A stretch of 32,145 bases of DNA from Sanchytrium tribonematis (Eukaryota): positions 1 to 32,145 of the forward strand of contig JADGIG010000045.1 in the NCBI GenBank assembly GCA_018985235.1, read 5' to 3'. Positions 3,641 to 27,192 of the stretch are shown one piece after another. Position 1 is the stretch's first letter; each line of letters starts with the position of its first letter. The notes beneath the pieces were generated by a model, which was not told the DNA's origin, did not search any database, and saw nothing but the letters and a program-made list of their open reading frames with translations. The translations under genes were made by a program, and so were the position numbers.

Positions 3641-4400
3641 ATGTCTCGTCGCTATGATTCAAGAACCACAACTTTTTCTCCAGAAGGGAGATTATTTCAA
3701 GTTGAGTATGCTATGGAAGCCATCAACCATGCGGGTACATGTATTGGAATTGTTGGAACAGATGGAGTCGTAATTGCCGCAGAGAAGAAAGTGATTTCGC
3801 CGCTTTTGGAGAATTCGACCGAAAAAATCTATAAATTGACTGACCATATATTATGCGGAGTAGCTGGTATTACTAGTGATGCAAATACTTTAGTGACTAC
3901 AGCTCGGGTCACTGCACAGCGTTATTTGTACACATTTAATCAGGATATGCCTGTGGAACAATTAGTTCAACGACTATGCGATATCAAACAAAGATACACG
4001 CAAAGTGGTGGTATGAGGCCTTTTGGTGTCTCTATCTTATATGCTGGATTTGATGAAAAATATGGATACCAATTATATCATTCTGATCCATCTGGAAACT
4101 ATGCTGGATGGCAAGCAACTTGCATTGGCCAAAATTCTGCAGCTGCAGAATCGCAGTTAAAGCAAGAATACAAGCCTGAGTTAGATCTTGCCGGTGCAGT
4201 AAAGCTTGCTTTTAGTGTGCTATCAAAAACTCTAGATAGTCCGCAATTAAGTAGTGACAAATGTATTATGATTTAATTTAGTGGAAGTCTCTATTATAAA
4301 AAAAATCAATGGTAAAGTGAAAACTAAAATTCTGAATGATGACGAGATTAAGATTTATATTGAGAAATATGGCGCCAAAAAAGAAGATAAAAAAGATTGA
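3641..4400 (+). CDS. PRE9: 20S proteasome subunit alpha-3; join(3641..4262,4282..4400), 246 aa
   Basis: Starts [28 protein letters not shown]. Removing the 19-nt intron restores the C-terminus [42 protein letters not shown]. Confidence 0.93.
4263..4281 (+). other. 19-nt spliceosomal intron (phase 1)
   Basis: gtattatgatttaatttag. Removal creates a T|TG (Leu) codon and an open frame to TGA at 4400. Confidence 0.88.
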
Positions 4401-4427
4401 TTTCAAAAATAAATTCCAAGCCTCAAA

Positions 4428-5387
4428 ATGTCTGTTTTAGAATATATCGAATCTTCAAAATCCATTATTGATGGTGGTAAAGAAACATTAAACAATTTAG
4501 ATAGTAAAACGAAAGAGTGGTCGCGTGTACAAAGGGAATCCACCAATGTTGAACAATTACATAATACGACTTATGAAGCAATCACTTATTTGAGTAAGAC
4601 CCTAAAAGAAATCCATAAAGCGCTTGATTCTCTAACCAAACTGCAGGAGACTAATGCAGTTCAAGTGGGGAGTGAAGCCGCTTTATTATCTGAGCAATTT
4701 AAAGTCATGAATTCAACTTTAGGTTTGGAAAAATATATTACAGAAATCAGTCCAGCTTTTTCTCAAACTGAATTTAGATTTGAAGAAGGAAATTCTGATT
4801 TTGAGGAGGATATCCCACTAGACCTTAGTTATGACTTTCATTCTACTAAGAAAATTGGAGTGCCATTGGACGAGTCAATGTTCGACTTTACTGCAATGCC
4901 TACGAATTCTGTTGCAAATAATAAGTATTCAACGGTTGATAGTATGAAAAACCAAACCACTAATAATAAGAAATTTAATTCCGATACAGTCAAAAAAGCA
5001 AGTAGAGAAAGCTTGGCTGAATTGCCTGCTAGTAAAAATTCCACCATGGTACAAGAAAAAAAAGGTCAATCGTTGGGTCGACCCCAAGATACACCAATCT
5101 CTCCTCCGCCAGTTCAGCAGACCATGTCGCCCCAAGTACCGATTCCTCAACAGATACCACAGCAAATTCCAGTTCCAGCGCCGCCTCAAACCACTCCGAG
5201 CCCTCAAGTTCATATCAAAAAGGCTAGAGTTTTGTATGGTTACAACGCCACTGAGAATGATGAACTGACTATGAAAGCGGGAGAATTTATCGATGTTCTA
5301 AATGAAGATATGGGCGATGGCTGGGCTTTAGGAATCGCCCAAGGAAAAAAAGGTCTTTTCCCAAGATCTTATGTTCAGATGCAATAG
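4428..5387 (+). CDS. SH3-domain adaptor with N-terminal coiled coil and Pro/Gln-rich linker, Abi (WAVE complex)-like
   Basis: Clear C-terminal SH3 (ARVLYGYNATENDEL...DGWALG...GLFPRSYV). The N-terminus (IDGGKETL, TYEAITYLSKTL...LQ) resembles recalled Abi1 N-terminal helices. The SH3 call is firm; the Abi call is tentative. Confidence 0.6.
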   Translation: MSVLEYIESSKSIIDGGKETLNNLDSKTKEWSRVQRESTNVEQLHNTTYEAITYLSKTLKEIHKALDSLTKLQETNAVQVGSEAALLSEQFKVMNSTLGLEKYITEISPAFSQTEFRFEEGNSDFEEDIPLDLSYDFHSTKKIGVPLDESMFDFTAMPTNSVANNKYSTVDSMKNQTTNNKKFNSDTVKKASRESLAELPASKNSTMVQEKKGQSLGRPQDTPISPPPVQQTMSPQVPIPQQIPQQIPVPAPPQTTPSPQVHIKKARVLYGYNATENDELTMKAGEFIDVLNEDMGDGWALGIAQGKKGLFPRSYVQMQ

Positions 5388-5555
5388 TAATAAATGTTTA
5401 TCGACTAAGTTTTAGATCTGCATGTGTAAGCGATCGCAAAGTCAGCAACCTTGGGCAAATTGGTTGCCATTTGGTGAACGCTAATGGTTGGCTAGAAGCG
5501 ACTTCGCCAATCAAATGCATAAAAAGGGTCAACCCAAGTTTTGGACAAAACAACG

Positions 5556-6239
5556 ATGCTTTCGTTTGGTAGTATTCAAAGAAGCGAAAACATAGCAGTC
5601 ATAATACATGGAGGAGCTTGGAGAACAGGCGAACCTGCAGAATACCAGGAAGCCGGTAAAATAATTGATGGAAAATTTGGAAATTGCTTGATTCCAGTAT
5701 ATTCTCTATGTGTTAATAATACCAAATGGGGCGTGCAACTGCAGGATCTTGTTGACTTTTTACATAACCTGCATGTAAAATATGGGAAATCTATCACTAT
5801 TTTTGGACATAGTTGTGGGGCACAATTAGCTCTGTGTTTATTGGCAATGCAGAAAGGAAAAATTATCAACGATTTTTACGGAAAACCCATTGATTATAGA
5901 GACTACCATATTAGCCATATATACTGCTTGGAAGGAATTTACGATATACCAGATCTACTATTAGAATATCCTACTTATTCTGATTTTATAGAGCAGTGCT
6001 TTGGAGTAGAAAGTGAATTATACAAGCAGGTGTCTCCCACATATTTTACAGAGTATTTTGACAACAATGAGGTACTAATTGTTCATTCGAAAAATGATGA
6101 CCTCCTGAGTGGTCGTCAACCTAGAGAATTTGCCTTGAAAATGAAATCGCAAGTATGTTGGATTTCAGGCAAGCACTGGAAATGTTTAGAATCTCGGGAA
6201 TTTATTGATTTAGTTTACAATCACAAAATAAATATGTGA
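5556..6239 (+). CDS. Kynurenine formamidase-like alpha/beta hydrolase (Bna7/AFMID-like)
   Basis: IHGGAW oxyanion motif, GHSCGA nucleophile elbow, EGIYDI and VHSKNDDLL. First in-frame ATG is at 5556. Confidence 0.8.
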   Translation: MLSFGSIQRSENIAVIIHGGAWRTGEPAEYQEAGKIIDGKFGNCLIPVYSLCVNNTKWGVQLQDLVDFLHNLHVKYGKSITIFGHSCGAQLALCLLAMQKGKIINDFYGKPIDYRDYHISHIYCLEGIYDIPDLLLEYPTYSDFIEQCFGVESELYKQVSPTYFTEYFDNNEVLIVHSKNDDLLSGRQPREFALKMKSQVCWISGKHWKCLESREFIDLVYNHKINM

Positions 6240-6277
6240 CTTCAATATTTCATTTTTCCTTGTTTCATTGTATTTGA

Positions 6278-7613
6278 ATGAGCGAAAATCGTCAAGCTTT
6301 ACTTGAACAAAAGAAGCGAAAATTGGCAGATCTCAGGAGACTTCGCCAAAAAAGGTATTCATCCTCAAATATTTCTGCCAATGAAAGTGTTCATAATATT
6401 CTGGAATCAATAGAGCTCCCTAATATGGAAACTGATGAGAATAAAGACAATGATATACCAGAGCCTCTTATTAAAAATCAAACTAATTTGCAAACATCCG
6501 AGTACATTCATTTTCAGATAAAACTAGACAAAATTGTATATGAAAAATCTACTCAAGCACAGGTAGAAGCACCTGAACCTGAGGATATTGAAATGAAATC
6601 AATAAGTGATGAAGGCACGATCAGTCTTTCCCCTGAAGATGAAATGCAAGATGGCAAACAAAATACTTTGCGGCTTGGAAACTCTAATCCTGTACCATTG
6701 GGTGACTTTGTCATGGAAGCCGCAAAGCGAATTGAAAATATAATGAGTATCCAGAACTCAACTAAGCATGTCTATATCTACGATCAAATTGAATTTAAAC
6801 AAGATGATGTGATTTCGTGTCAGTTTTTTAGGAATGACATTGCGTTGACTTGCGAATCTGGAATTTATTTTAGAAACTCAAAAATTTTATTATCAAATGT
6901 CACGTCTTCATTGTGTCATGAATTGATTTATTTAGGGACAGAGTATGGTTCTATACATGTATATGATTCTCGAACTTTACAATTAATTAATATTTTAAAT
7001 TATCACAAGTATCCAATCAAACAAATTGAGTTTAGCAATAATACCCTATTGTCTTTATCGGAGGATGGAGAGTTATTACTGTGGAATATCAAGATGGTTT
7101 CTGAGCCAATTGCAATGATTTCAACAAAGCCAGGAGCCTTGTGTATGGCAAAAATGCACCAGTATATTGTAGGATGCTTAGATGGCATGTACAGCGTTAC
7201 TATGCAAATGAATAATAGACCCCAAATCAATGACTCTAAATTTGAAATTGGAAGTGTTTATTCTTTGAGTGCCATGAATGAATTTGCTTTGACCGCATCA
7301 ACGGATCAAGTAAGTCTATGGCATATTCCGGTAGAATTCTTTAACGTAGACTAAACTGCCACAAATTGTTTCACCGATTAGGTCTTTTTCCATTGATGTT
7401 CCCACTGGAATTCATTGGTTAACAAGAAACAATTTTTTAATAACCAGTACAGATAAAATTTCAATTTACAATCTTCAAGGTTGGATAAACGATGTTAACG
7501 TTGATGTTACTGGGTGTATCGTAAACAGTTCAATTTTAGAGGACAACTTACTGCTATGTACCAATGAAGGCACTGTATATTGGGTAAAATTAAGTGAAGA
7601 TTTTTTTGAATAG
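6278..7613 (+). CDS. Cytoplasmic dynein intermediate chain-like WD40 protein; join(6278..7330,7350..7613), 438 aa
   Basis: N-terminal LEQKKRKLADLRR coiled coil, VYEKSTQ light-chain-binding-like motif and WD40 repeats. The 19-nt intron extends the ORF by 87 codons, ending LLLCTNEGTVYWVKLSEDFFE*. Confidence 0.75.
7331..7349 (+). other. 19-nt spliceosomal intron (phase 0)
   Basis: gtagaattctttaacgtag. Removal opens a stop-free WD40-like exon at 7350-7613. Confidence 0.85.
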
Positions 7614-7694
7614 TGCTTGTGTTCATCTTAGGCGTTGGATTCTAAATTAGATTATTTCAATAAAGTTCAATTTATCCGCTGTTTTAAATATTAG

Positions 7695-9539
<1,845 letters not shown>

Positions 9540-9545
9540 AGATTC

Positions 9546-10034
9546 ATGTTTCATCAACAAAATTCAGCTAGTGGTACATTTACTCGACCAGTAGGTAGCG
9601 GCATAAAGTTTGGAGTCTTGGGATTAATGGGAGGAATAGGAATCAGTGCGTTGGCTAACTCGAAATCAAGAACGTGGTCTCATATTTCTTTGGGGTCCAA
9701 AATGTTTGTTGTGTCGGCAATCGGCTTGATTGGTGCAATATTGGGCTCTGAGTATTCTAGAGATACCACCTCTCCTGGAAGTGCACATTACAAGACTTTG
9801 CCTTCTAACCCTGAGCCCTTGACTATCTCAGAAAGTTTAGAGAAAGCCAAATTCAAAGCGGCAGGAATTGTGTGGGCAAGTACTATTTTAGCCACATTTG
9901 GATACTTAGCTTCTCAAAAAAATATGAAAGTGTCTGAAAAACTTGCACATGGAAGAGTGGTAGCTCAAGCAGTGACTGTCGGCTCTATTGTTGGTTCTTT
10001 GCTGTTGGTTGGGTCTAGTCAAAAAGCGAAATAA
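9546..10034 (+). CDS. HIG1-domain mitochondrial respiratory supercomplex factor (Rcf2-like)
   Basis: Four hydrophobic helices and a C-terminal HIG1 motif, SEKLAHGRVVAQAVTV. Confidence 0.75.
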   Translation: MFHQQNSASGTFTRPVGSGIKFGVLGLMGGIGISALANSKSRTWSHISLGSKMFVVSAIGLIGAILGSEYSRDTTSPGSAHYKTLPSNPEPLTISESLEKAKFKAAGIVWASTILATFGYLASQKNMKVSEKLAHGRVVAQAVTVGSIVGSLLLVGSSQKAK

Positions 10035-10052
10035 AAAATATATCAGCCTAAA

Positions 10053-11135
10053 CTACAAAACTAATAGATTTTTATTCTTGCTTGCTTGTTCGATAATGGA
10101 ATACATGTCAGATTCTAAAAATTCGGACTTTTCAGATGAAATTAAATATATTCGGCAATTATGACTTGCTAAGTTCCATCCAGAACAGATATATTTCTCA
10201 CATTCGAAAAAATTTGTAATACTGCATATTTCCAAAGGTCTGTCTCTTGATTGCATCAATTTAAGACAGGAATGTGTGAAATTTTGAAATACTTCAAATT
10301 GCATTTTTTTAGCAAATAATTCAAATGACAAGTCAGAGTTCCTCAATTTAGTTTTTTGGTATTTAAGCTGTAAAAGCTTATGATTTAAAAATACAAGCGC
10401 TTGATTTCCTTTAACATATAGACCGTATAAAGAATGATTGGCTATTATTGGTTGCGAGTCAACTACAGTTGGAAAATGTTTCGAACATTTATGGTGAACT
10501 TCCATTATACTATCAAATTTATCATGCCTAGAAGATATGTGTACGAAATATACGAGATTCTCAAATGTGACTAAAACGTGAAGTAATTGAGTCCCGAATT
10601 GAACGGGTATCCATCTGTAACCTTCGGATCTTCTGCTTATAAGCATTTGTATAACCAAAATATCAGAGACAGTGAAATTAATTGACTGCCTCTTATATAC
10701 TCCTTTCAGAGTTGCAAAGGTGTTTGCTTGGTGAGTAAACACAAGAGTTGCTAACAGAAATTCATGGCCATGCCTGAGAGACAATTCCATGTCTTTGTTT
10801 TTATAAACAGGAAAGCATTCTAAATTTGCATAAAATCGCAACTGCTGAAAGTACATCGAAGCAGATCCTAGAATATCCTCCGGCTGATTTGGAAAAGATC
10901 TGTTTAAAGCGATACAATAGGTATGTATAATCAAAGCAAATTTTTCGATAATCTCAGTGGAAATATACAGAACATCGTCGATCTCTTTAAAATATATGCA
11001 ACGTGATTCTCCTTTGATCTGCTTTATTTTATTAGAATGGTATATCGAGAATAGCAATGGAACGTCTTTCAACTTTAAAATATCTTCTCCATAATCAAAA
11101 ATTGCTTTACCATCTCGACAAAGTATCAGCTGCAT
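10053..11135 (-). CDS. Tri-longin domain protein of the Mon1/HPS1/Fuzzy family
   Basis: N-terminal LILCRDGKAIF (cf. Mon1 FILSSAGKPIY) and SDILVIQML...WIPV...LHVLV...HISS segment. ATG 11135 avoids overlap with katanin. Confidence 0.5.
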   Translation of the reverse strand: MQLILCRDGKAIFDYGEDILKLKDVPLLFSIYHSNKIKQIKGESRCIYFKEIDDVLYISTEIIEKFALIIHTYCIALNRSFPNQPEDILGSASMYFQQLRFYANLECFPVYKNKDMELSLRHGHEFLLATLVFTHQANTFATLKGVYKRQSINFTVSDILVIQMLISRRSEGYRWIPVQFGTQLLHVLVTFENLVYFVHISSRHDKFDSIMEVHHKCSKHFPTVVDSQPIIANHSLYGLYVKGNQALVFLNHKLLQLKYQKTKLRNSDLSFELFAKKMQFEVFQNFTHSCLKLMQSRDRPLEICSITNFFECEKYICSGWNLASHNCRIYLISSEKSEFLESDMYSIIEQASKNKNLLVL

Positions 11136-11150
11136 TTTGGAGATGTTTGA

Positions 11151-12344
<1,194 letters not shown>

Positions 12345-12376
12345 TAAATTTCAAAGTGACTCTTAATTCTCAAACA

Positions 12377-14204
12377 ATGAATTCTATTTTTTTAACCACA
12401 AAAACTTTAAATTTCTTGCAACTTAGGTATAATGTCACCAAAGATGACAAAATGTTTGCAAAAATAGACTTGGAGACTATTCAGTCACATATTGACAATA
12501 ATCCCTATACTTCTGAATTTTTGGACTTTAAGGAAAAAATTTATGAGGCTAAGGCTTGTTTCGTAATCAAAGATGTATACTGGAAGAGTGGAAAAAACTA
12601 CGAAATAACATTTGATGAACCTGAAATTGCAATGGTTGAGCCCACTAACGCAAATGCAACTAGTGAGCCTTCAAAGCCTATATTTTTGAAAGAAATTCCA
12701 ATTATAATAGAAAAAAGCTGGATTGCACCGACGAGACATGACAAAACCATGTTAAAAACGGAAGAATTCAAGCTCACTAAAATGTTATTACACAAAAACC
12801 ACATTGAAAAGAAATTCATAGAAGTTAAAGAAAAAGTGTTTATAGATAAAGGGAGCCAAGTTGCAGCTACTCATTATTTGAACCGAAAATTACAGTATAG
12901 CACCAAACATCTAGAATCTAGTCAGATAAAAGAAATCTGTGCTCGCGACAACTTTTTATCTTTCGTGAAAGAAGCTGAGCAGCTTATTACAAAAGACATA
13001 GAATTCGAAGAGCTATTGTTTAAGTCCGCAATAAAGTCTTCCGACATATTTATTAGCAACAAAGACAAATTAACCGATTTGACTTCATTTAGTTTAAATG
13101 AAGAGTCTGGTGGAGAATCAATATTCGCAACCTGTATATTATTTGTACCAGAACAATGCGACAAAACGATTTGTAGTTTTGGCAATATAAAAGTCGACTG
13201 CGAATCAATTGTTTTATGTAAATGGTACTCCAAAGATATTATTGCACCAGAGAAAGTTTACCGCGATAAATTCGGAATCACAACATTTAGTATTTATCAG
13301 GGAAAAACAATTGTGGCTGGCTTTCAGGATGGAAGTATAAAATTTATAGACTTGGAAACATTTGATTGCGTCAGCGCCAAAAAAGAAGTTAAGGCAACTC
13401 AAAATCGTGCACCAATAGGCTTCATTCTAATTGAAGGAGACGAATTAATTGCCATCTCGACAAAATTTGAGATCTCTAAATATCTCATGAAAGACTCGGC
13501 ATTAGAATTAATTTCAAACGTATTTCTTTGTAATTTAGTATACATCCAAAATATCTTCGCTGTGCCTCCATGCAGAAGTTATTAGGGCTCAAAGAGCCAT
13601 AAAATTATCAGATGATATTGGAAATTTGTTTTCCACAAATATTGAGGAGACGAAGGTTCTCGTTGAAGATCCGATTCGATTGCCATTTGCTATATCATTC
13701 ATAACCGAAAATCCAGTAATTGATGATCTCATTCTTGTAGGTTCCACTGGGGTTTTAGTCATATATAGAAACCAAGTAGAAATTCACCGCTTATCTGTCG
13801 ATGTACAATTTACGTGTGGTAAATGGAGTCCCACAAGACCAAGCGTATTTTTTACAACCTCAAAAGATGGCAATTTTTATGTCTTCGATTTGTTACAAAA
13901 TGACGAAAGCCCTCTAGAAGTCAAGGCAATTAGTTCCAGTAGAATTATAAGCATGGATCTTCAAACATTTTCCAACAAACAGTTTGCATGTTTGGGTTCC
14001 CAAGATGGGTCCTCTCATATTCTTAAAATTCCTAAAGAGTTTTGTAAGCAATTCAAGTCCAATGCTAAAGAGTATGAAACCTATCTAACCAATCTAGAAG
14101 TCTCTAAAGAAACACTTTCGGAATTTCAAATCCCAACAACGAAAAAAGATTTGATCTTTGACGATGTCGACGAAATACTCTCAAAAATGGTTAAATCAAA
14201 ATAA
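12377..14204 (+). CDS. WDR63/DNAI3 (IC140)-like axonemal dynein intermediate chain; join(12377..13519,13539..14204), 602 aa
   Basis: N-terminal IFLTTKT...TSEF...KSGKNY matches the recalled WDR63 N-terminus. C-terminal WSPTRPSVFF...DG...FDLL is a dynein IC WD40 motif. The intron joins the two track ORFs in frame. Confidence 0.75.
13520..13538 (+). other. 19-nt spliceosomal intron (phase 0)
   Basis: gtatttctttgtaatttag. After removal the frame reads YTSKISSLCLHAEVIRAQRAIKLSDDIGN into ORF 13626..14204. Confidence 0.88.
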
Positions 14205-15560
14205 ATCATCAAACTTCCTCACATAAATACTATGATTCATGACTATGGTTAGTGTTTGACTAAACACAAATAAATTATAAGAGGAAACCACACTCGACAA
14301 GTTTGATTCATGACGCATAATCCCATTTTTATCAAATATAATCAATTTAAGATAATCTTCATCCTGGAATAAACTAACTAAATACTTGCCGTTAAATTTT
14401 AGTAATCCGGATTGATATCTATAATTGATTATAGCTTTGTCCGAGGACGCTAAGCACAGCACGCTATTGTTTGCAATTCCAACCAAGTATGGGTCATTCA
14501 ATGTTTCAACCAAAATTTTAAAGTTTAGAGGATTGTTAACCTTGAGAAATTCGACTTGAGGTAATGATTTTAGGTCAATCAAAGTACCTAAATTAATATT
14601 CTCATCGGTTTCTACAACGTTTGTTTCAATCAGATTTGGATACGATTTACAAAACGCAATTAGTTTTTTATCATCAGCATCAGGAACCTTATTTTGAACC
14701 AAACACAAAATCCAATGAAAAAATTCCAAAACACAAGTGTAATAGTCTTGATTTTTTTCAAAAATGGCCTCATTTGATTTTAATATTGAAAGACTTTTGC
14801 TTGTAATGTCATCAGAAGTCTTGTCCCATTCGAATGTAAGGGCAAACAAAGATCTGCTAAATCCCACTAACGAAATGTATTTCTCTTTCAGATCTAATTG
14901 ATGATTTATCCACAAATCGTATAAATCTGCTAGCATATTTAAATTTTTTTGGTAGCTTTGGATGGTGACGTAAGTCGAAATATAAAAGAGCATCAATTGA
15001 TTGTTCCCAAATAAAATATGCTGCGCTATACTCTTTATAGCCAGACCAGTTCGATGATCTTCAGTCTCATTACTTGCCTCGAATTTTAAATTGACGCATT
15101 CTTTTAAATGCAAGTACACCTGCTTCAATATTCCATCGATGTCCAATTCTATTTTTTCGACCTGTGCTTTTGATTCTTGTATAATATGCAATTGATTTAT
15201 AAAATCTGCTTTGACATTAAATGCTTTTCCAAGGACAATATTGCCAAGACTTGTATAGCCACATTTAGACAATACAATCGATTTCGCGCTATGTGACTCA
15301 ATCAAATAACCATATTTAGTGTAAGCAAAAATACCATTTCCGGTATTGGTAAATATGTACTCTCCAATTATTGTGGCATGTTGAATAGATTCAGTTTTTT
15401 CAAATGCAGAGATCTGATCAATATATACATACCAGGTGTCCGTGGTCCAGCCAACGCTCATGATACTGCTTTCTAGCACACTGCAATCTTTGACGTCTCT
15501 ATCTAATGTTAATAATATTTCTCCCCATTCGTTGAGAATATTTTTAAAATGGCAAAACAT
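14196..15560 (-). CDS. Divergent anaphase-promoting complex subunit 4 (Apc4)-like protein
   Basis: HILFGNNQLMLFY...YVTIQSYQK, EFFHWIL and DDKKLIAF resemble recalled Apc4 long-domain segments, flanked by beta-rich regions. Confidence 0.45.
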   Translation of the reverse strand: MFCHFKNILNEWGEILLTLDRDVKDCSVLESSIMSVGWTTDTWYVYIDQISAFEKTESIQHATIIGEYIFTNTGNGIFAYTKYGYLIESHSAKSIVLSKCGYTSLGNIVLGKAFNVKADFINQLHIIQESKAQVEKIELDIDGILKQVYLHLKECVNLKFEASNETEDHRTGLAIKSIAQHILFGNNQLMLFYISTYVTIQSYQKNLNMLADLYDLWINHQLDLKEKYISLVGFSRSLFALTFEWDKTSDDITSKSLSILKSNEAIFEKNQDYYTCVLEFFHWILCLVQNKVPDADDKKLIAFCKSYPNLIETNVVETDENINLGTLIDLKSLPQVEFLKVNNPLNFKILVETLNDPYLVGIANNSVLCLASSDKAIINYRYQSGLLKFNGKYLVSLFQDEDYLKLIIFDKNGIMRHESNLSSVVSSYNLFVFSQTLTIVMNHSIYVRKFDDLF

Positions 15561-15698
15561 TCTGTTTTAAGATTATAGGTTCAAAATTTGGCCACCTTAA
15601 ATTCCCATAAATGTTACAAATTGTAAATGAAATAATAATAATCAAATTACAAATTATATACTGCACAAATATAGAAATTGGCAAAGTTTTTGTAACAT

Positions 15699-18497: not shown

Positions 18498-18524
18498 AAC
18501 ACTCCAGCTGAAACTTAAAATTTA

Positions 18525-19940
18525 ATGATTCACTCGCCTACCGAAAGTTCGTTTGCTTCTTCGGTTCATGAGCAGATCAAACCTTTCAATATGAAAAAAT
18601 ATACATCGCTTTTACCCAGTATAGTTTTATATTTTGCAGTGTTGTTGCTTTTAAAGGATAACGTGATTGCATTATTCTGTGCATTGTTTGTCGCTATAAT
18701 TGGAACTGAACTAAAATTAAGTATCATCATTTTGATGGCATTACTCGTGCTAAGCATCACGGTAGAATTGCCAGAACTGCTCAGCGGATATCAAGAACCA
18801 ACTCTATTTTTGGTTTGGAGTGCTTTTCATTTGGGAACTGCAATCCAAATTCACCTGAGCTCCCATATTTCTATTTTTTTATTGTACAAATTCTGTTTTT
18901 CATGGTACAGTATGTCATTATGCATCATTGGCTTAGAATTATTATTTGCATCTGTAATTCCTTCCAATACAGCCAGAGGAGGTCTTATTTTGCCAATCGT
19001 TCAACACATGATGGACATGTTAGATTTGTCTTACGGTACATACCTGACTCTGCTCGCTGCTTTTGCAAATCTTATTTCTGCAAGCACTTGGATGTTTGGC
19101 ATGGCCACAAATAGCTTAATCATTGAATTCATGACTAATTACAAATCTATAAAATTTACATTCTTCGACTGGTTAAGTGGAGCAATATTGCCTACGCTTG
19201 TAATCTCAATTAGTTTACCATTTATCCTTAAATACTTTTTATTGAAAGATGTTCCAGATCATGTACCAATGCTCAGGAATCAGATTACCGCAGATTTTTT
19301 ACAGCTCCCTAAACTTAATTGGAAGCAATTCGCCTTGATCGGAATACTTTTGGGCTGTCTAGTTTTATGGATGTCTCATCAAATCCACAATATCTCTTCT
19401 ACTATTATTTCAATGTTTGGATTGTTACTTCTTTTGTCTCTTGACATTATTTCTTGGGACGATGTTCTTAAAAACAAACAAGCATGGGATGCATTTTTCT
19501 GGTTAGGTGGGTTTATATCAATTGTAAATATCTTACAATCTCATAATATTACCAGTATAATAGGCAGTGCGATTGGCGAGATGATGCAATTTATTCACTC
19601 ACCCATACTAACAACTATGATTTTGACTAGTATTTACTTCTTCAGCATGTACATGTTTTCGGGTTGTTCGTCACATTTATTAGCTTTGGCCCCACCGATT
19701 CTCATGTCCGGAATACAACTGGGTTGCCCACCAAAATTGCTTTTGGCTTTAATGGCCTATTTCACTACGTTGAGTGGGTTATTAACGTATTATTCTTCCG
19801 GCCCAATAGTCATGTATTATTCATTAAATCTTGTGCAAAGCAGTACGTGGTTAAAAATGGGTTTAATTGTATCTTTATTTGTCATGTCTGTTTATTTCAC
19901 AATTGGTCTTCTTTGGTTCAAGATTCTGGGATTTTACTAA
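18525..19940 (+). CDS. DASS family di/tricarboxylate transporter (CitT/DiT1-like)
   Basis: Polytopic membrane protein with IPSNTARGG, FFDWL, ISWDDVLKNKQAWDAFFWLG and LTYYSSGP motifs. Confidence 0.85.
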   Translation: MIHSPTESSFASSVHEQIKPFNMKKYTSLLPSIVLYFAVLLLLKDNVIALFCALFVAIIGTELKLSIIILMALLVLSITVELPELLSGYQEPTLFLVWSAFHLGTAIQIHLSSHISIFLLYKFCFSWYSMSLCIIGLELLFASVIPSNTARGGLILPIVQHMMDMLDLSYGTYLTLLAAFANLISASTWMFGMATNSLIIEFMTNYKSIKFTFFDWLSGAILPTLVISISLPFILKYFLLKDVPDHVPMLRNQITADFLQLPKLNWKQFALIGILLGCLVLWMSHQIHNISSTIISMFGLLLLLSLDIISWDDVLKNKQAWDAFFWLGGFISIVNILQSHNITSIIGSAIGEMMQFIHSPILTTMILTSIYFFSMYMFSGCSSHLLALAPPILMSGIQLGCPPKLLLALMAYFTTLSGLLTYYSSGPIVMYYSLNLVQSSTWLKMGLIVSLFVMSVYFTIGLLWFKILGFY

Positions 19941-19945
19941 TTTAA

Positions 19946-20416
19946 TCACAGAAAAATTTTTAGTCCCGAATTTATGATTAAACCAATTACACATCCAGCT
20001 TTAAATATTGTGTATTCATCAGACTTGATTCTGAGCGGGATCATTGTAAATACCGAAAATATAAACCCACTTAAAACCCCCATCAATAAATAAATGTACA
20101 AATCGTCTGGAGTTACAGCGGAAACATTTTGGGCTGTCATTTGGAGCGGATCAGATATGGTAGGCGGAGTTAGATGAACCATATTTCCATATTGTTTTAT
20201 TCTGGAGCTATAGAACGCTACGCTTTTGTTTAATTTCAACTTGGTGCCAAAATGGATTATATCAAAATTTCCTTCCAACTCTGCTGGTATTAGTTCGTTT
20301 ACAAAGGTATATGGTTCAATTTGAACCTCATATGTTTTTTCCTGATATATGCACTTGATTAAGTTTAACTCTGGTTTAATATTGACGAGAGGAATTATTT
20401 CGTGATTATCTTCCAT
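19946..20416 (-). CDS. Dsc3/DUF2407-like protein (ubiquitin-like domain plus two C-terminal TM helices)
   Basis: IIHFGTKL...VH ubiquitin-like segment and LLMGVLSGFIF...AGCVIGLIIN transmembrane pair. ATG at 20416. Confidence 0.55.
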   Translation of the reverse strand: MEDNHEIIPLVNIKPELNLIKCIYQEKTYEVQIEPYTFVNELIPAELEGNFDIIHFGTKLKLNKSVAFYSSRIKQYGNMVHLTPPTISDPLQMTAQNVSAVTPDDLYIYLLMGVLSGFIFSVFTMIPLRIKSDEYTIFKAGCVIGLIINSGLKIFL

Positions 20417-20454
20417 GTTTATTCTCCTTGTTACAAAAGATTTGAGATTGAACA

Positions 20455-22431
20455 ATGCTAAGAATTTTGAGGCTGCTCGAACAGGAAGATAACTCCCTTC
20501 GGCCCTTATTTCAATTGAAAGCAACAAATTTTGATAAATGGAAATGTTCCACTAATGAATACCCTGAACTTAATAATTATTTTAAGCAATTTATTCCTTT
20601 TATTGTCAACGAATTGAGATCTCAAGCTACGATTGACGAGCCTTCGTTCTACAGATTACAACTTCTTTGTAAAAATGAGAACGTGTATGATATTATTGGG
20701 AAGAAAACGGAACAAGGAATTCAAATCAATGACAAAGTTTTTTTATATCATGGTGATATCATTGGATTGTCTACTACTCATATTTTAGACTACGTTGCTA
20801 TCGTAGAAGGATTCCAATTGATTTGTCTTCACGATTTACCAGAAAATATCAATATGACTTCTCTTTGTAATGCAGTTCCTTTTGATCGAATGTTAAGTAG
20901 TTGTGAACGACCCCATCAACTCAGAAAGACTTTTTGTCAAGTTATTGTTAATGGAGAAATTCCTGAAAATCAAAATTTGCAATTGACTGAATTCCAGGTG
21001 TCAATGCTAAGAAACCTAGTCGTAAATGAATCTCAGAAACAATTTTTGGAAGATGCGCTCACTTCAACTCTACCTATTAAGCTTTTGGTCGGACCCCCAG
21101 GAACTGGTAAATCTTATTCTATCGTACAGTATATAAACTTGTTGCAACACAAAATCGTTTGCACCGCTCCAACTAATGTTGCTGTGGTCAACCTTCTTGA
21201 AAAATACATATCTCATGGCAAACGATCTTTTATTTGGCAGGGGAACAAATTTAGGCTGCGTGACATGAACTTACTAACCAAAAGACTGGAACTGTATCAT
21301 TTAGATGCACTCGTTGATAGAATAGTAAGTGTTTTCTTCGAGTTCCAGTCAGTGAATGAGAAGATTATGAATGAGTGCGATCCAGATGAAATCAGAGCTG
21401 ATATAAAATTGCACATTATGCATTTGAAAGAGATTTTGTCCAGACTTCCAAAATGCAAAATTTATGACTTATATACTCAAAGACTTGATAGAGCTAATTC
21501 TATTATCCTGAAGCCTATTACAGCTGACAGTGTTATCGTGATTCCATCGACAATGCATGAAACGATCAGGAAGTACTGTTTTAAAATTCCATTTGAGGTA
21601 GTATTTTGCACGGTCTCCCGATGCTCTGTGATTAGAAATTTGCCCGACCATATCATTGTGGACGAAGCCTGTATGGTCGTTGAGTCAGAGTCTACCATTT
21701 TGTTTCATGAAAATCTTCAAAAACTTATTCTTGTAGGTGATCCGATGCAATTGTCTTCGACCGTCAATAATATGGAAGCAAAGAAATACGATTTCGACAA
21801 AAGTCTTTTTGATAGACTTTACTCGCTAAATTATCCCTATCAAATGTTGAATATACAATATCGCATGGTTCCAAAAATCTGCGAAATAGTTTCTAAACTC
21901 TCTTACAATAACAAACTAGAAACTGGTTGGCTTCCACCGCAATTACCGTGGCAGAATGATACTCGCTTTTCTGAAATTCAATGGATAAATGTTGAAAGTT
22001 CCCAATTAAAACATCAGCCTAGTTATAGCAACGAAATAGAGGTAGATGTAATATTTAAATATTTGAACGAATTTTTCGAGAATTATTTTGAAGTGGTTAA
22101 ATCTGCCAACTTGAAAATTGCAATCATATCACCTTACAGGAAACAAATAGAGGTAATTCAGCAAATATTGTATAATATGGAAATTGATATATCCAAACAT
22201 ATCGAATGCAATTCTATTGATGCTTTTCAGGGTCAAGAAAGAGACATTGTTATAATTTCATTAGTTCGCACTCAGGGATTAGGGTTTACAGGAGATTTAC
22301 GGCGCCTCAATGTTGCCATTAGTCGCGCAAGATTCATGGTTACGATAATAGGAGACGCTAAGAATTTTATAGGCACAAGTTGGTTCGATGTATTCAAATA
22401 CTGCCAAAGTTTTAACGCAATTTTGTCATAA
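20455..22431 (+). CDS. SF1 Upf1/Sen1-like (DNA2/NAM7) helicase
   Basis: GPPGTGKS, APTNVAV, IVDEA, VGDPMQL, SLFDRL, LNIQYRM, ISPYRKQ, IDAFQGQERD and RRLNVAISRAR. Confidence 0.9.
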   Translation: MLRILRLLEQEDNSLRPLFQLKATNFDKWKCSTNEYPELNNYFKQFIPFIVNELRSQATIDEPSFYRLQLLCKNENVYDIIGKKTEQGIQINDKVFLYHGDIIGLSTTHILDYVAIVEGFQLICLHDLPENINMTSLCNAVPFDRMLSSCERPHQLRKTFCQVIVNGEIPENQNLQLTEFQVSMLRNLVVNESQKQFLEDALTSTLPIKLLVGPPGTGKSYSIVQYINLLQHKIVCTAPTNVAVVNLLEKYISHGKRSFIWQGNKFRLRDMNLLTKRLELYHLDALVDRIVSVFFEFQSVNEKIMNECDPDEIRADIKLHIMHLKEILSRLPKCKIYDLYTQRLDRANSIILKPITADSVIVIPSTMHETIRKYCFKIPFEVVFCTVSRCSVIRNLPDHIIVDEACMVVESESTILFHENLQKLILVGDPMQLSSTVNNMEAKKYDFDKSLFDRLYSLNYPYQMLNIQYRMVPKICEIVSKLSYNNKLETGWLPPQLPWQNDTRFSEIQWINVESSQLKHQPSYSNEIEVDVIFKYLNEFFENYFEVVKSANLKIAIISPYRKQIEVIQQILYNMEIDISKHIECNSIDAFQGQERDIVIISLVRTQGLGFTGDLRRLNVAISRARFMVTIIGDAKNFIGTSWFDVFKYCQSFNAILS

Positions 22432-22438
22432 TTAAAAT

Positions 22439-22900
22439 TTATTGGAAGGTGCCATATTTTGAATCATTATAACCTATTTTTTGTCTCTTTTTGGTAACGT
22501 CATGGTTTTCAATTTTCATTTCCCGTACTTTTATTTGTTGTATATTTATTGTTCCTTGAAGTTTTTCTTTATAAATATTAATTTCACTTTCTATTGAATC
22601 AATATTTTCCTGTAATTGATTTTTTTGATATTGTTTCGATGACTCGGCTTTTTGAAATTTCATTATGGCTTCTCTCAAGTAAACATGTTTTTTTTGAAGA
22701 TTTCGTTTTGAATCTCGGATAAAATTGGCTTCATTTCCCAAAAAATCCATTTCTCTCTTTAATGACTTAATCTTTGATTTTTGAAGCATGATTCTTTGAT
22801 GAAGTATATCCGCTTCAGTGGACTTGGTTTGTATTAGCTCAGTCATTTGACAAATGTCTTTCTCTGAGAATTTTTGAGTGGATGATAATTTTTGGCCCAT
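22439..22900 (-). CDS. Small coiled-coil protein of unknown function (start uncertain)
   Basis: K/E/Q-rich heptad-like ORF. ATG 22900 gives MGQKLSS, an N-myristoylation-like motif. An upstream exon from 23015 is also possible. Confidence 0.55.
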   Translation of the reverse strand: MGQKLSSTQKFSEKDICQMTELIQTKSTEADILHQRIMLQKSKIKSLKREMDFLGNEANFIRDSKRNLQKKHVYLREAIMKFQKAESSKQYQKNQLQENIDSIESEINIYKEKLQGTINIQQIKVREMKIENHDVTKKRQKIGYNDSKYGTFQ

Positions 22901-23065
22901 TTTCAATTGTTGGAAAATTTCTTTATAACGTTGAGGTTTAGCTGTTGAAATTTTGTGAACGCAGATGATGTGACTTACCTCTATCGATAATATCTTCTAC
23001 AGAGTCAACTCTCATTTTAATGATTTTAGAAACCTGACCCTAGTTAGACACACGAACTAGAAATA

Positions 23066-23314
23066 ATGTCAGAATTAAGTAGGCTGCAGCACATGAAAAA
23101 CTGCCAATTTCAGGGCTATTACGATTCGTTCATAGGTTTTACAACTATTTTTATCTCAAGTTATGTCGTAGGGCACTACCAAAAGAGTAGAGGTAAAAAA
23201 CTCTTGGTACAGTCTCTAGTATTTGGATTTGCCGGCGCAAGTGCCATTGGTGCCTTTTCTGCAATGCGATGCACTAGAAGTAAAAACATGAAAAGTAAAA
23301 TCCAAGACTTATAA
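23066..23314 (+). CDS. Small two-TM membrane protein, possibly TMEM141-like
   Basis: 82 aa with a CQ motif, two hydrophobic segments and a second Cys. AATAAA lies just after the stop. Confidence 0.5.
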   Translation: MSELSRLQHMKNCQFQGYYDSFIGFTTIFISSYVVGHYQKSRGKKLLVQSLVFGFAGASAIGAFSAMRCTRSKNMKSKIQDL

Positions 23315-23335
23315 TGAAAATAAATATATTTATAA

Positions 23336-24143
23336 CTACGATACTGGCTGTTTGGAGGCCATGTAGGTAATTGGCATTTCCCTGATTTGGGCAATTGAGC
23401 TATCCATTTGTTCATGGAGATCTGCATTGTGATGAAAAGTTTGTTCAAAAGTAGGTCTCAATTTATCTAACTCTGTTGCATATTTTATGCTGGTATTATA
23501 TTGAATGTGAAGTAGAGACTTAAATATTGGATCAAAATATGACTGTCTAGCATCAATGAAGGCAGGGATATCATGCAAAAGTCTGTTGTTTATATCTTCA
23601 TAAATTTGTTTTGTTTTTTGCGCTTCTTGCTCTTGCTAAATAAGTAAAAAGTACAGCCGGCATTTTTGTTGCATCATTACTAGGCGACTCGCTCAACTTT
23701 CGAACTTTAGTTCTAGCAGCATCATAATCAATTAATTTTCTACCACGTTTTTTGATAAGCTCATCAAAAAATTGGAACGACGCAGCATATTTGTTCACTG
23801 GATCCATAATATTTTTCCTAAAAGGCTCATCTAAAGCTTGTCTTACTTCATTATCCAATTGTTGGATCATCAATTTATATCGAGCAGCAACGGGCTTTTT
23901 CAAGTCAGTCTCGTCAAAAAGATTGTATAACATTTCAGACATATCACTCTGTGCGATTCCTACTGATCTGGTTGCATCCAACAAGGTCTTACTGCTTCCA
24001 ACAATACTTTGAATTTTTTTTTCAAGATTTTCTAGTTTTGTCTTGTCTTCATCAAATTTGGGGTCTATGGTTTTGTCTGCCATACCAAGCCCCTGCATAG
24101 CCTGGGTCGACGCTCTAGCAATAGCTTTCGATATCCCATGCAT
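23336..24143 (-). CDS. RVS161: N-BAR amphiphysin Rvs161/Hob3-like; join(complement 24143..23655,23635..23336), 262 aa
   Basis: GISKAIARA...DKTID, LIKKRGRKLIDYDAARTKVRKL and, after the intron, QEQEAQKTKQIYEDINNRLLHDIPAFIDARQSYFDPIFKSLLHIQ. Confidence 0.85.
23636..23654 (-). other. 19-nt spliceosomal intron (phase 0)
   Basis: gtactttttacttatttag on the minus strand joins track ORFs 23598..24365 and 23336..23578 into one BAR domain. Confidence 0.9.
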
Positions 24144-24321
24144 TTTGAACGAAGTTTCAAGGAAAAGCACAAATCTTGTTTTGCCTTGTACATTTGGCAA
24201 TTCATTTCCATTGTAGCATAGGGTATGCCAAACGACTAATTCTTTCTCGCTAAAAAATTTGTCCACAAAGAAAGAATATATAAACAATTTTCTAAACACA
24301 GTCATTTCTCCTTCTTTATCT

Positions 24322-25461
24322 ATGAGTATGCAAAAACCTACTTTCCGTTCCAGGAAGATAGACAAACACCGTCAAATGTGTGTATTATTAGAAGAAGATG
24401 TTGATTTTGATGGTACTATTCGCGATACCCAAAACATTGATTATGGTGTGGACAAGGAAGAAGCAGAGGAAGAGCATCTTTTGCAATCCTTGCAAACTCA
24501 ATTTCAAACAAAAAAAGCATATGTGCCACTTCCTGATGTACAATTATTAAAAAGGCCCAAAAAACTATTTCAGCGTCCAATAGATTGGATAAGGCACAAC
24601 GAGCCTGAGATTGTTGAATACTGTTCTTCTAAAGAAGAGATTGAGTTTGTGAAAAATCACCCAGGAATGAAGCTTGATGAATACGAGTACGTTATGCAAG
24701 TTTGTGATTCAATGATGTTGGATAGGCTCCCACATGCCTCAATTTTTGACATTGGCGACCTTCTATACAAAATTGTAACTGGTTATCAAAAGCCGCACCT
24801 GGAAGAAATAATACCTGTCATTTATGACCATTACAAAACCAAATTTTTAGAAAAAAATAATATATTAATGCCTGTCCTTTTACCAGCAGAAAAATTTGAA
24901 TCGGATTCCCACCCATATAAATCTTTTAGACCCAGAGAGATAGCGACATTTCGAAAAACGAGGCAATCACAAAACTCGACTTCTAGACTCAAACAATGGA
25001 ACAGTGAACTAAGTTCAGCTCATCAACTATTGCAGATGGTAGCTCATAGAGAGCGAATTCAAAAGGAAGTTCTTTTAGTAGACCAAATAATATTTGAGAA
25101 AAAGCTCAAAGTCAAACTAAAGAGAAAGCAACTTGGACTTCCAGATGAAGAACAAAAACCACTCGCTAGACAGAAATTGACAAGTATTGGCGATGGAATT
25201 AAGAGGAGAATTCAAATGGACAAAGATTACGTAGATATTAGTTTGTCGCTGTTTAATCACAGATCATGGGCCTATAGGTTGAGGCAAGGAATATCAAATA
25301 TGATCATTGATAGAAATTCCTCGTTCGACGCGTACGATGTACTTTCTGACGAAGAAATCGAAATTATAGATCCAAATGAAGACTCATTTACAAAAATTAG
25401 ATATGAACAGCTCACCCAGTTGGATTGGAACATGATAAATAATATTAAAAAAGAAAAATAA
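24322..25461 (+). CDS. EPL1: Enhancer of Polycomb-like NuA4 subunit
   Basis: FRSRKID, GVDKEEAEEEHL, YVPLPDV and HPYKSFRPRE...RKTR motifs. First ATG is at 24322. Confidence 0.85.
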   Translation: MSMQKPTFRSRKIDKHRQMCVLLEEDVDFDGTIRDTQNIDYGVDKEEAEEEHLLQSLQTQFQTKKAYVPLPDVQLLKRPKKLFQRPIDWIRHNEPEIVEYCSSKEEIEFVKNHPGMKLDEYEYVMQVCDSMMLDRLPHASIFDIGDLLYKIVTGYQKPHLEEIIPVIYDHYKTKFLEKNNILMPVLLPAEKFESDSHPYKSFRPREIATFRKTRQSQNSTSRLKQWNSELSSAHQLLQMVAHRERIQKEVLLVDQIIFEKKLKVKLKRKQLGLPDEEQKPLARQKLTSIGDGIKRRIQMDKDYVDISLSLFNHRSWAYRLRQGISNMIIDRNSSFDAYDVLSDEEIEIIDPNEDSFTKIRYEQLTQLDWNMINNIKKEK

Positions 25462-25481
25462 ATTAAGTAAATAATACAATA

Positions 25482-27192
25482 TCAAATATATCCGGCGCCT
25501 TCAAACATATCTTCGATCAAAACTTGGAATTCCGTTCCATTCAATTTAAGATATTTTACATACGGCTCTGGAATTCTAAATTAGTTACGAATACCGAGAT
25601 GACATGGCGTTGTACTCCAACATTAACTTGTCTTTTAATGATGACTTTAACATTGATCGCAATTGAGGGTCTATAAGTCGAACAGCTTTTTGAAGCTTTT
25701 GGGCATCCTCAAAATAGCTGTAGATTTGTTTAGACTTGTCTTTGAAAGCTTTTTCTTCTAGCGTTTTTCGAGCTTCCTCAATGCTTTTCTCTACAATAGA
25801 CCAGCAAGTCAAATAACCATCGAAGTGGGAGTGAAATTTGGTTGTTATCAATTTAGCTGTAGCATCGTTTACATATTCCTTTAAAGTGGTATTTTCGTTT
25901 ATAACATTTTGAATAAATGTAAGATTATTTAGAGCGAATACTCTACGGTGAAGATCATGCTGAAAATATTTTGCAGAGTCATCAATTAATTTGCAACATT
26001 CTGCGAGTAGCGAAGATAAATATTCGCTTGTATTTTGGTGATGAGTTACAAATAACTCGACCCACTCATCAACGTTTTGATCATGCTCGAGTAATTTGCG
26101 AATAAAAGTTATCGACAGATGAACACCCTCGTGAATAGTTCCATCTTGCTGCGGTTTAGAAGGGTTTTCATTAATTTTAGGATCAAAAAATTGGCCAGAG
26201 GCTTGTAAAAAATGCTGCTCATTTTTGATTATAATATTTTGCTTCTCAGTAATTCCTTCAAAACTATTGATGATCATTCTAAAATCACTGCGAATACCAT
26301 TGATGTTTTGAAGAAATATAAGAAATCCAGCCATTGCCTTTTGTTTTTTCATTTCTTTTAGATCTCGAATCGCTAATTCCACGGAGGAATTTAACAAATC
26401 AAACGCGTTTTTGGTGATTTCGTCAAAAGTTTTATGAACCACGCTTGCAACTCGAAAGATACAATCTGCAAACTTTCTTTCATTTTGAAATATGATCGCG
26501 GACCATTCCATCATGGACGGAAATTGATCGATGTATCCACTAGATGTCGGGGACTTGGGTTCGCTTCCAATCGAGCCTCTTTTGACAAAAGCATCTGGAC
26601 CTAGCGGTAACAATGACTCATAGATGAATTTCGCTCGAAGACTGTGAAAATCTTTTGAAAACTCAAAATCGGCAGACCCATCATATATTGTTGCGGCTAA
26701 CTTTTGAATGAATTCTAATGCTTCGTCCTCAACAATAGCTTGATCTTCGGCACCGTTTCGAATTATAGTCGGAATATCAAGTGGTTCGGAAACCTGTCTA
26801 ATTTTACTCATAAATAAATTGCTTAATTGTAACAAACCAACTTTACGGAGCTGTCTTAAAGACACAATGTTTTTTTCTGATCCTTTCCAGGGATTTTCAC
26901 TTAAAATTTTAATTGCATTTTGAATTCTATTTAAAGAATCCAAAAATGGTTGAACGTCAGTACCAACACCTCTTGTAATCAATTTTTCTTCTCTTTGTGA
27001 TGTTTTTAGAGAGTCCAATAAAATATCCAAATAATCTAGACACTTTTGACTGTTTTGAAGAGCAACCGAGTGCTTAGCAGTCTTTTGGTTAATTTTGGTG
27101 AAAGAATCAGTTAAATGTTGCACTTTTGTTATTAGAAAGTCACTACTATGTTGGGCCTGAGTTTTTAATTGATTTAGCTTTTCCAATTCCAT
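25482..27192 (-). CDS. EXO70: Exocyst subunit Exo70; join(complement 27192..25595,25575..25482), about 563 aa
   Basis: PQQDGTIHE, VFALNNLTFI and DPQLRSML. The intron restores the family-like end YVKYLKLNGTEFQVLIEDMFEGAGYI*. Confidence 0.85.
25576..25594 (-). other. 19-nt spliceosomal intron (phase 2)
   Basis: gtattcgtaactaatttag on the minus strand. It contains a canonical-looking branch site, ACTAAT, followed directly by TTAG. Confidence 0.88.

Follow-up and report, generated by a model that had tools for sequence, protein, structure and literature searches.

The window analysed here is the 32,145-nucleotide stretch at positions 1 to 32,145 of contig JADGIG010000045.1 of Sanchytrium tribonematis (assembly GCA_018985235.1). 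Within it, six protein-coding genes are each interrupted by a single very short segment, considered here as a candidate intron. Five of the segments are 19 nt long and one is 21 nt, and all six begin with GT and finish with TAG. A first-pass annotation of this DNA had placed six GT-AG segments at the coordinates and on the strands given below, and had held that each repairs a broken open reading frame (ORF). Both claims are borne out: the segments are all present, with lengths of 19, 19, 21, 19, 19 and 19 nt, and their removal leads to a stop-free coding sequence in 6/6 genes.

Gene identities derive from Pfam, homologue names and matches in the PDB. Introns 1 to 4 are on the forward strand. 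Intron 1 (4263-4281, 19 nt, phase 1; predicted branch adenosine 4276) lies between exons 3641-4262 and 4282-4400 of the gene for proteasome subunit α3, whose joined product has 246 amino acids (aa). Intron 2 (7331-7349, 19 nt, phase 0; predicted branch adenosine 7344) separates exons 6278-7330 and 7350-7613 of a gene with a 438-aa product, termed here the WD40 gene; Pfam gives WD40 alone, and we take the protein to resemble a cytoplasmic dynein intermediate chain. Intron 3 (11628-11648, 21 nt, phase 0; predicted branch adenosine 11643) falls between exons 11154-11627 and 11649-12344 of a katanin p60 gene (389 aa), and intron 4 (13520-13538, 19 nt, phase 0; predicted branch adenosine 13533) between exons 12377-13519 and 13539-14204 of a second WD40 gene, which is WDR63/DNAI3-like (602 aa). 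The remaining two are on the reverse strand. Intron 5 (23636-23654, 19 nt, phase 0; predicted branch adenosine 23641) joins exons 24143-23655 and 23635-23336 of an Rvs161/amphiphysin BAR gene (262 aa), and intron 6 (25576-25594, 19 nt, phase 2; predicted branch adenosine 25581) joins exons 27192-25595 and 25575-25482 of an Exo70 gene (563 aa), the stop codon of which ends at 25482. The relative positions of introns 1 to 6 within their genes are 0.84, 0.80, 0.41, 0.63, 0.62 and 0.95; they sit late, whereas yeast and microsporidian introns are described as biased towards the 5' end, in a sample of six in which short 5' exons would be harder to see.

Restoration of the reading frame cannot by itself fix the length of an intron, since 33, 28, 71, 48, 53 and 13 GT-AG segments of 10-300 nt are able to join the frames at introns 1 to 6, respectively, and the called segment is the shortest of these in three cases, tied shortest in one and second shortest in two. 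Homology fixes five of the six junctions, those of α3, katanin, Exo70, the WD40/dynein intermediate chain-like gene and Rvs161. For α3, the junction residues of all six aligned named fungal homologues are kept by the 19-nt form only, and alternatives of 25 and 28 nt were rejected on the same alignment. The product of the WD40 gene has a relative, P0240 (61% identical), which matches all seven residues before the donor and diverges at the donor. As this conservation ends at the 7331 donor, a 40-nt alternative with a GTAAGT donor is excluded. In katanin, the 21-nt insert splits the Walker A motif and contains an in-frame stop, and its removal leaves the protein collinear with 6/6 homologues; an 18-nt alternative was rejected. 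The Pfam BAR profile is matched by Rvs161 over positions 2-170 on exon 1 and 172-231 on exon 2, and alignment to the BIN2 structure 4avm_A places one exon directly after the other. Exon 1 of Exo70 ends approximately 32-48 residues before the ends of solved Exo70 chains, and exon 2 adds 30. Alternatives of 13 and 28 nt for intron 6 were rejected from the donor position and tails of the related proteins discussed below. PDB searches with the last Exo70 exon, the last exon of the WD40/dynein intermediate chain-like gene and the first exon of the WDR63-like gene gave no significant match.

Both halves of the intron 4 gene resemble axonemal dynein intermediate chains, with no alignment spanning the junction. 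Exon 2 matches WDR63 in the PDB (E 4.6e-10), and the ESM Atlas gives leads that fall below its recognition threshold. Sanchytrids are reported in PMC8371127 to be without axonemal and inner-arm dyneins, while the joined gene at 12377-14204 (+) resembles the inner-arm intermediate chain WDR63/DNAI3. The supplement of the same publication itself annotates DNAI1 and DNAI2 in the sanchytrid Amoeboradix gromovi.

All six segments end in T-W-A-Y-K-T-A-G, with T at -8, A at -6, a pyrimidine at -5 and T at -3. In three of the ten columns from -3 to -12 (T-8, A-6 and T-3) all six carry the same base. Of 200,000 random sets of six drawn from the window's 1,459 GT-AG segments, 3 reached three invariant columns; with 351 AT-rich GT-AG segments as the source, 17 of 200,000 sets did so. 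The interiors of the introns are 58% T and 17% G+C, compared with 35.1% G+C for the window, and their sequence is not conserved. The donor offers little beyond GT(A): GTA is present in 5/6, the sole exception being the 21-nt katanin intron. A scan of the window with the strict motif returned five 19-nt hits, all of them called introns, against 0.5 expected and with none of 100 shuffles reaching that number, although this enrichment is circular, as the motif was taken from those six introns. One extra copy of the motif, at 6915-6935, was considered as an intron and rejected, being conserved coding sequence in P0240; protein comparison is thus able to separate introns from look-alikes. The common tail, a motif absent from the first-pass annotation, is predicted to combine branch point and acceptor in one fused signal. 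The T-W-A-Y context around the adenosine at -6 is found in 6/6 segments as a sequence pattern, branching at this base being predicted from its position.

The segments can also be followed in related proteins. The closest relatives of the window α3 are ENA and Logan proteins at 80-90% identity, with named fungi at 68% or below. A. gromovi, one of whose proteins falls in the same cluster as the best α3 hit, is 87.5% identical in α3, 64% in Exo70 (one of four relatives found) and 63% in katanin (among the top hits). A maximum-likelihood tree, built with 31 of 124 α3 proteins, places the window with A. gromovi and four further rows on a long branch with support of 100/99; the place of this group among the fungi is not resolved by the tree. 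The organism, described beforehand as fungus-like, is on this grouping a sanchytrid fungus, distinct from the A. gromovi reference. The Sanchytriomycota are presented in PMC8371127 as algal parasites, sister to the Blastocladiomycota, with genomes of 10.5-11.2 Mb and approximately 35% G+C. The metagenomic proteins P0001-P0003, P0124, P0126, P0127, P0129, P0225, P0226, P0228 and P0240 group with A. gromovi, and public assemblies contain several undescribed sanchytrid-like lineages, some on contigs of 20-77 kb.

Protein calls made without regard to introns read into the intron, so that intron length can be deduced from the protein tail. All six α3 relatives diverge at the codon of intron 1. In P0003, which is 79% identical, translation continues for 66 residues past the break, and this tail is exon 2 out of frame, offset by exactly 19 nt: 18 of 33 residues are compatible with this length, against eight for the best other length, a result reached in none of 2,000 shuffles. 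The tails of A. gromovi P0121 and of P0002 fit 19 nt, and those of P0001, P0123 (near-copies) and P0124 fit 22 nt, with two visible motif positions each. All six Exo70 relatives that cover the intron 6 site end there, a count that leaves out P0231, a 170-aa N-terminal fragment which stops short of the site. Four of the six stop directly after the donor codon, placing the donor as in the window, contrary to the 13-nt alternative. The other two, A. gromovi P0227 and the Logan protein P0226, have a five-residue tail ending in Ile and a stop, as expected of a 19-nt phase-2 intron, and fit 19 nt at 6/6 visible motif positions, with a chance of 0.4-0.5% each; the A. gromovi tail contains no internal GT. 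The single relative of the WD40 gene, P0240, breaks at the intron 2 site and fits 20 nt on two positions. Across the three genes, nine tails are informative (19 nt in five, 20 nt in one and 22 nt in three) and four are uninformative. The introns, very likely spliceosomal, are clade-wide at three positions or more, those in α3, the WD40 gene and Exo70 being the three.

The katanin intron behaves differently, being missing from all four related katanins, including A. gromovi P0128, which implies recent gain or differential loss. It is also alone among the six in its length of 21 nt and in having a donor other than GTA, and is a candidate for recent gain within the Walker A codons.

The first-pass annotation had itself named assembly indels as an explanation of the frameshifts that would overturn its reading. 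The breaks might more generally be artefacts of assembly or amplification, or belong to pseudogenes with a chance GT-AG repair; the genome of the named relative was made by whole-genome amplification, and each break has 13-71 GT-AG candidates able to repair it. Such an origin is nevertheless highly improbable, because the same breaks are seen in proteins from EukProt, ENA and Logan at identities of 61-89%, because errors would involve 1-2 nt rather than 19-21 nt extra relative to homologues, and because the genes are of essential type and otherwise intact. For introns 1, 2 and 6, the finding of the same break in independent sources, three in all, excludes an assembly error, and the artefact explanation is largely refuted. 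A scan of JGI metagenomes had a best identity of 65% (80 loci kept of 555), and no close related locus was found in the JGI metagenome, viral-contig and prokaryote-genome scans. Among seven of the 80 metagenome loci inspected at the α3 site, L001, L008, L009 and L011 are continuous across it, some of them probably being transcripts, and three are unaligned that far.

Taken together, the six segments can be regarded with considerable confidence as spliceosomal introns of U2 type, belonging to an ultra-short class found across the clade; their predicted branch adenosine, at which removal would start, lies six bases from the 3' end. The major spliceosome recognises GT, a branch adenosine and YAG. 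The machinery itself is encoded in the lineage, as indicated by a CDC5L-like gene in the window and by the annotation of A. gromovi, which includes Prp8, SF3B1, SNRNP40, Snu13 and the lariat debranching enzyme DBR1 (PMC8371127, supplement file 4).

U12-type introns carry an RTATCCTT donor and a TCCTTAAC branch box. This class was rejected, since none of the six donors goes on from GTAT to CCTT and three of the six do not start with GTAT. An IRE1-cleaved intron of the HAC1/XBP1 type was likewise rejected: such introns occur in a bZIP mRNA and are flanked by a pair of stem-loops whose cleavage loops are conserved, while the hosts here are not bZIP genes and the predicted folds do not have this layout. 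More broadly, removal or bypass might be non-spliceosomal, through cleavage of the IRE1/tRNA-ligase type, ribosomal bypass or excision at the DNA level. IRE1 introns of about 20-26 nt do exist; yet all six segments are GT-AG with a fixed branch-like adenosine, their hosts are unrelated housekeeping genes, the predicted folds have no common paired-hairpin layout, and the clade keeps Prp8, SF3B1 and DBR1. We regard any such route as very improbable.

Under spliceosomal removal, U2 small nuclear RNA would pair with a loosely CTAAC-like box in which W and Y flank the branch adenosine (W-A-Y), and the acceptor would be the first YAG, five bases downstream of that adenosine, too close for a pyrimidine tract to fit. 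The donor, which amounts to hardly more than GT(A), would lie 14-16 nt upstream of the branch adenosine, and with so minimal a donor at this distance the whole intron may be read as one unit, that is by intron definition. The predicted lariat loop of 14-16 nt is longer than the 10-11 nt of Stentor and so should be sterically feasible. Variation in length between 19 and 22 nt would be confined to the interval between donor and branch point, with the spacing from branch point to acceptor constant. The introns are probably old and became smaller as the genome was compacted; in katanin, and thus at least once, an intron was gained in one lineage or differentially lost. Splicing is probably efficient, because retention would truncate essential proteins.

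Several observations weigh against this interpretation. A scan of the window with a looser motif gave seven hits of 19 nt where 3.15 were expected, a number reached in 7 of 100 shuffles and so not significant in itself. Use of the branch adenosine is deduced from its position alone, and for the relatives it is protein tails rather than DNA that give the lengths. In α3, only two motif positions are visible in five of the six tails, with a chance of about 6% each for 19 nt, and longer introns could underlie them. The 13-nt alternative for Exo70 retains an R-Y pair found at that place in mouse Exo70. The junction of intron 4 (13520-13538) has no homology pin and depends on frame and motif, and its gene has a second 19-nt candidate, which lacks the motif. 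Finally, six introns from one 32-kb window give no genome-wide distribution.

Two of these concerns can be given a more definite form. One or two boundaries may be wrong, at 13 nt in Exo70 or, in the WDR63-like gene, at the other 19-nt candidate, with the class itself left standing. The 13-nt form keeps the 3' motif as well as the mouse residue pair, and intron 4 is without a homologous junction; against this, relatives put the Exo70 donor at the 25594 codon, 13 nt would be below the shortest introns in the literature compared (15-16 nt), and the alternative in gene 4 has no motif. Such an error is unlikely. It may also be that the introns are real but the window is unrepresentative, 19 nt being the short tail of a broad mix of lengths in the genome. 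Only six introns are seen directly, relatives suggest 20 and 22 nt as well, and four Exo70 tails yield no length. This too seems improbable, as lengths fall below 30 nt and within a narrow range throughout, at 19-21 nt for 6/6 introns in the window and 19-22 nt for 9/9 informative tails in relatives. Longer introns would also have little room in a window that is 93.7% genic with gaps near 30 nt. The near-fixed 19-nt class proposed beforehand is thus retained in part: tiny size is common to the clade, but as a 19-nt mode with a range of 19-22 nt rather than a fixed length.

Introns of this size had been said to be known from chlorarachniophyte nucleomorphs and heterotrichs such as Stentor, which agrees with the literature (18-21 nt and 15-16 nt, respectively). 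In Stentor coeruleus, the branch adenosine is described as the tenth base of 15-nt introns and the eleventh of 16-nt introns (PMC9505925). The sanchytrid introns resemble these in being GT-AG and U-rich, with the branch adenosine six bases from the 3' end and no pyrimidine tract. They differ in their length of 19-22 nt, a longer and more variable donor-to-branch distance (14-16 nt), a visible T-W-A-Y box, a weaker GTA donor (5/6) and an unrelated lineage. Nucleomorph introns number more than 800 in approximately 300 genes and, according to PMC10245619 and PMC6009652, have no motif past GU-AG; size range, GT-AG ends and a compact genome are shared, whereas the sanchytrid introns occur at about one per four genes, in the main nucleus and with a clear 3' motif. 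The mikrocytids, also reduced parasites with a narrow length class, are recorded in PMC10245619 as having 224 introns in total, of 16-17 nt and conserved in sequence, and a spliceosome of 17-19 proteins; sanchytrid interiors are unconserved, and their number is probably near 2,000 by extrapolation.

The smallest introns that the literature compared gives for fungi and related groups are those of Encephalitozoon cuniculi, at approximately 25 nt (one third or so of 76 nt), and those of Rozella, at approximately 30 nt (PMC6349667). E. cuniculi has 37 introns, of which 30 are spliced at below 50% according to PMC3629993. These organisms are likewise parasites with compact genomes. The sanchytrid introns are shorter, at 19-21 nt, are located mid-gene or 3' in essential genes, and belong to a separate phylum sister to the Blastocladiomycota. 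Myxobolid myxozoans and Dicyema, as described in PMC13644364, have introns with medians of 22-27 nt. Like sanchytrids, they are opisthokont parasites with a donor reduced to GTa and no pyrimidine tract; in them, however, the longer the intron, the farther the branch adenosine lies from the AG, positions being measured from the 5' end, while the sanchytrid adenosine stays at -6 at both 19 and 21 nt, and the sanchytrid length mode lies below theirs.

No report of such introns in sanchytrids was found in the literature, subscription papers being mostly beyond the reach of the search. The sanchytrid introns are apparently the shortest in fungi and apparently unreported so far. They are a known kind of tiny intron in a new group and involve no new mechanism. 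Blastoclads and chytrids have conventional introns. The class may be genome-wide and of independent origin, and six introns in 25 genes would extrapolate to approximately 2,000 per genome.

The manner in which sanchytrid proteins were predicted bears on how these introns would appear in databases. The published proteins were predicted by TransDecoder directly on assembled DNA contigs, and in the main text of PMC8371127 introns appear in a reference title only. A public protein collection contains five of the six genes as read-through or split fragments, of 211, 358, 164 + 230, 402 and 535 aa; a read-through of Rvs161 from the chosen start was not found there. The forecast that such genes would be mis-annotated is therefore correct in its outcome, but the cause in the published proteomes is intron-blind ORF calling rather than a 20-nt minimum intron length in gene predictors. 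As the sanchytrid proteomes behind fungal phylogenomics and gene-loss studies were made without introns, roughly a quarter of genes (6/25 here) would be truncated or split.

A broader picture, to which we lean without strong conviction, is of a phylum-wide set of approximately 2,000 introns with a mode of 19 nt, the shortest in fungi and below the 22-nt median of the animal record. These would be efficiently spliced in essential genes through a fused branch-acceptor signal, would still be being gained, as in the katanin Walker A codons, and would have gone unseen through intron-free calling, so that some published losses, such as inner-arm dynein parts, are perhaps split genes. If the interpretation is true, near-minimal spliceosomal introns have arisen independently inside the Fungi, apparently below the sizes known from microsporidia and Rozella. 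The branch adenosine would sit at -6 both here and in Stentor, which suggests that a steric minimum for the distance from branch point to acceptor has been reached convergently. It would also allow changes in spliceosome parts under intron shrinkage to be asked about in a fungus comparable with the yeast structures.

The rest of the window is compact. It has 25 gene calls, separated by gaps whose median is near 30 nt and many of which are below 40 nt, and 19 of the 25 are single ORFs. A search of all 25 genes for short 5' exons gave no 5' intron with the full motif, and no intron-like in-frame insertion was present in the four genes aligned to relatives. The assertion that no longer intron is needed anywhere is upheld by the single ORFs and wherever it was tested, with the reservation that stop-free introns of 3n length are possible in genes without aligned relatives. 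No Rfam match was obtained in the window. ORFs without a Pfam match (E 0.01) are at 10053-11135 (-), 14196-15560 (-), 19946-20416 (-), 22439-22996 (-), 23066-23314 (+) and 24322-25461 (+), the last of which looks Epl1/EPC-like. The CDC5L/Cef1-like gene lies at 7698-9539 (+) and has two Pfam Myb domains; the CDC5L label is our assumption from its N-terminal sequence, the protein presumably being a component of the spliceosomal Prp19 complex. A sodium:sulfate symporter (DASS/SLC13) family transporter of 471 aa is encoded at 18525-19940 (+), assigned by Pfam. The katanin p60 is short, at 389 aa (391-401 aa in the four relatives), and is without the N-terminal MIT domain (PF21126) of its animal homologues. 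Convergent stop regions overlap near 14196-14204.

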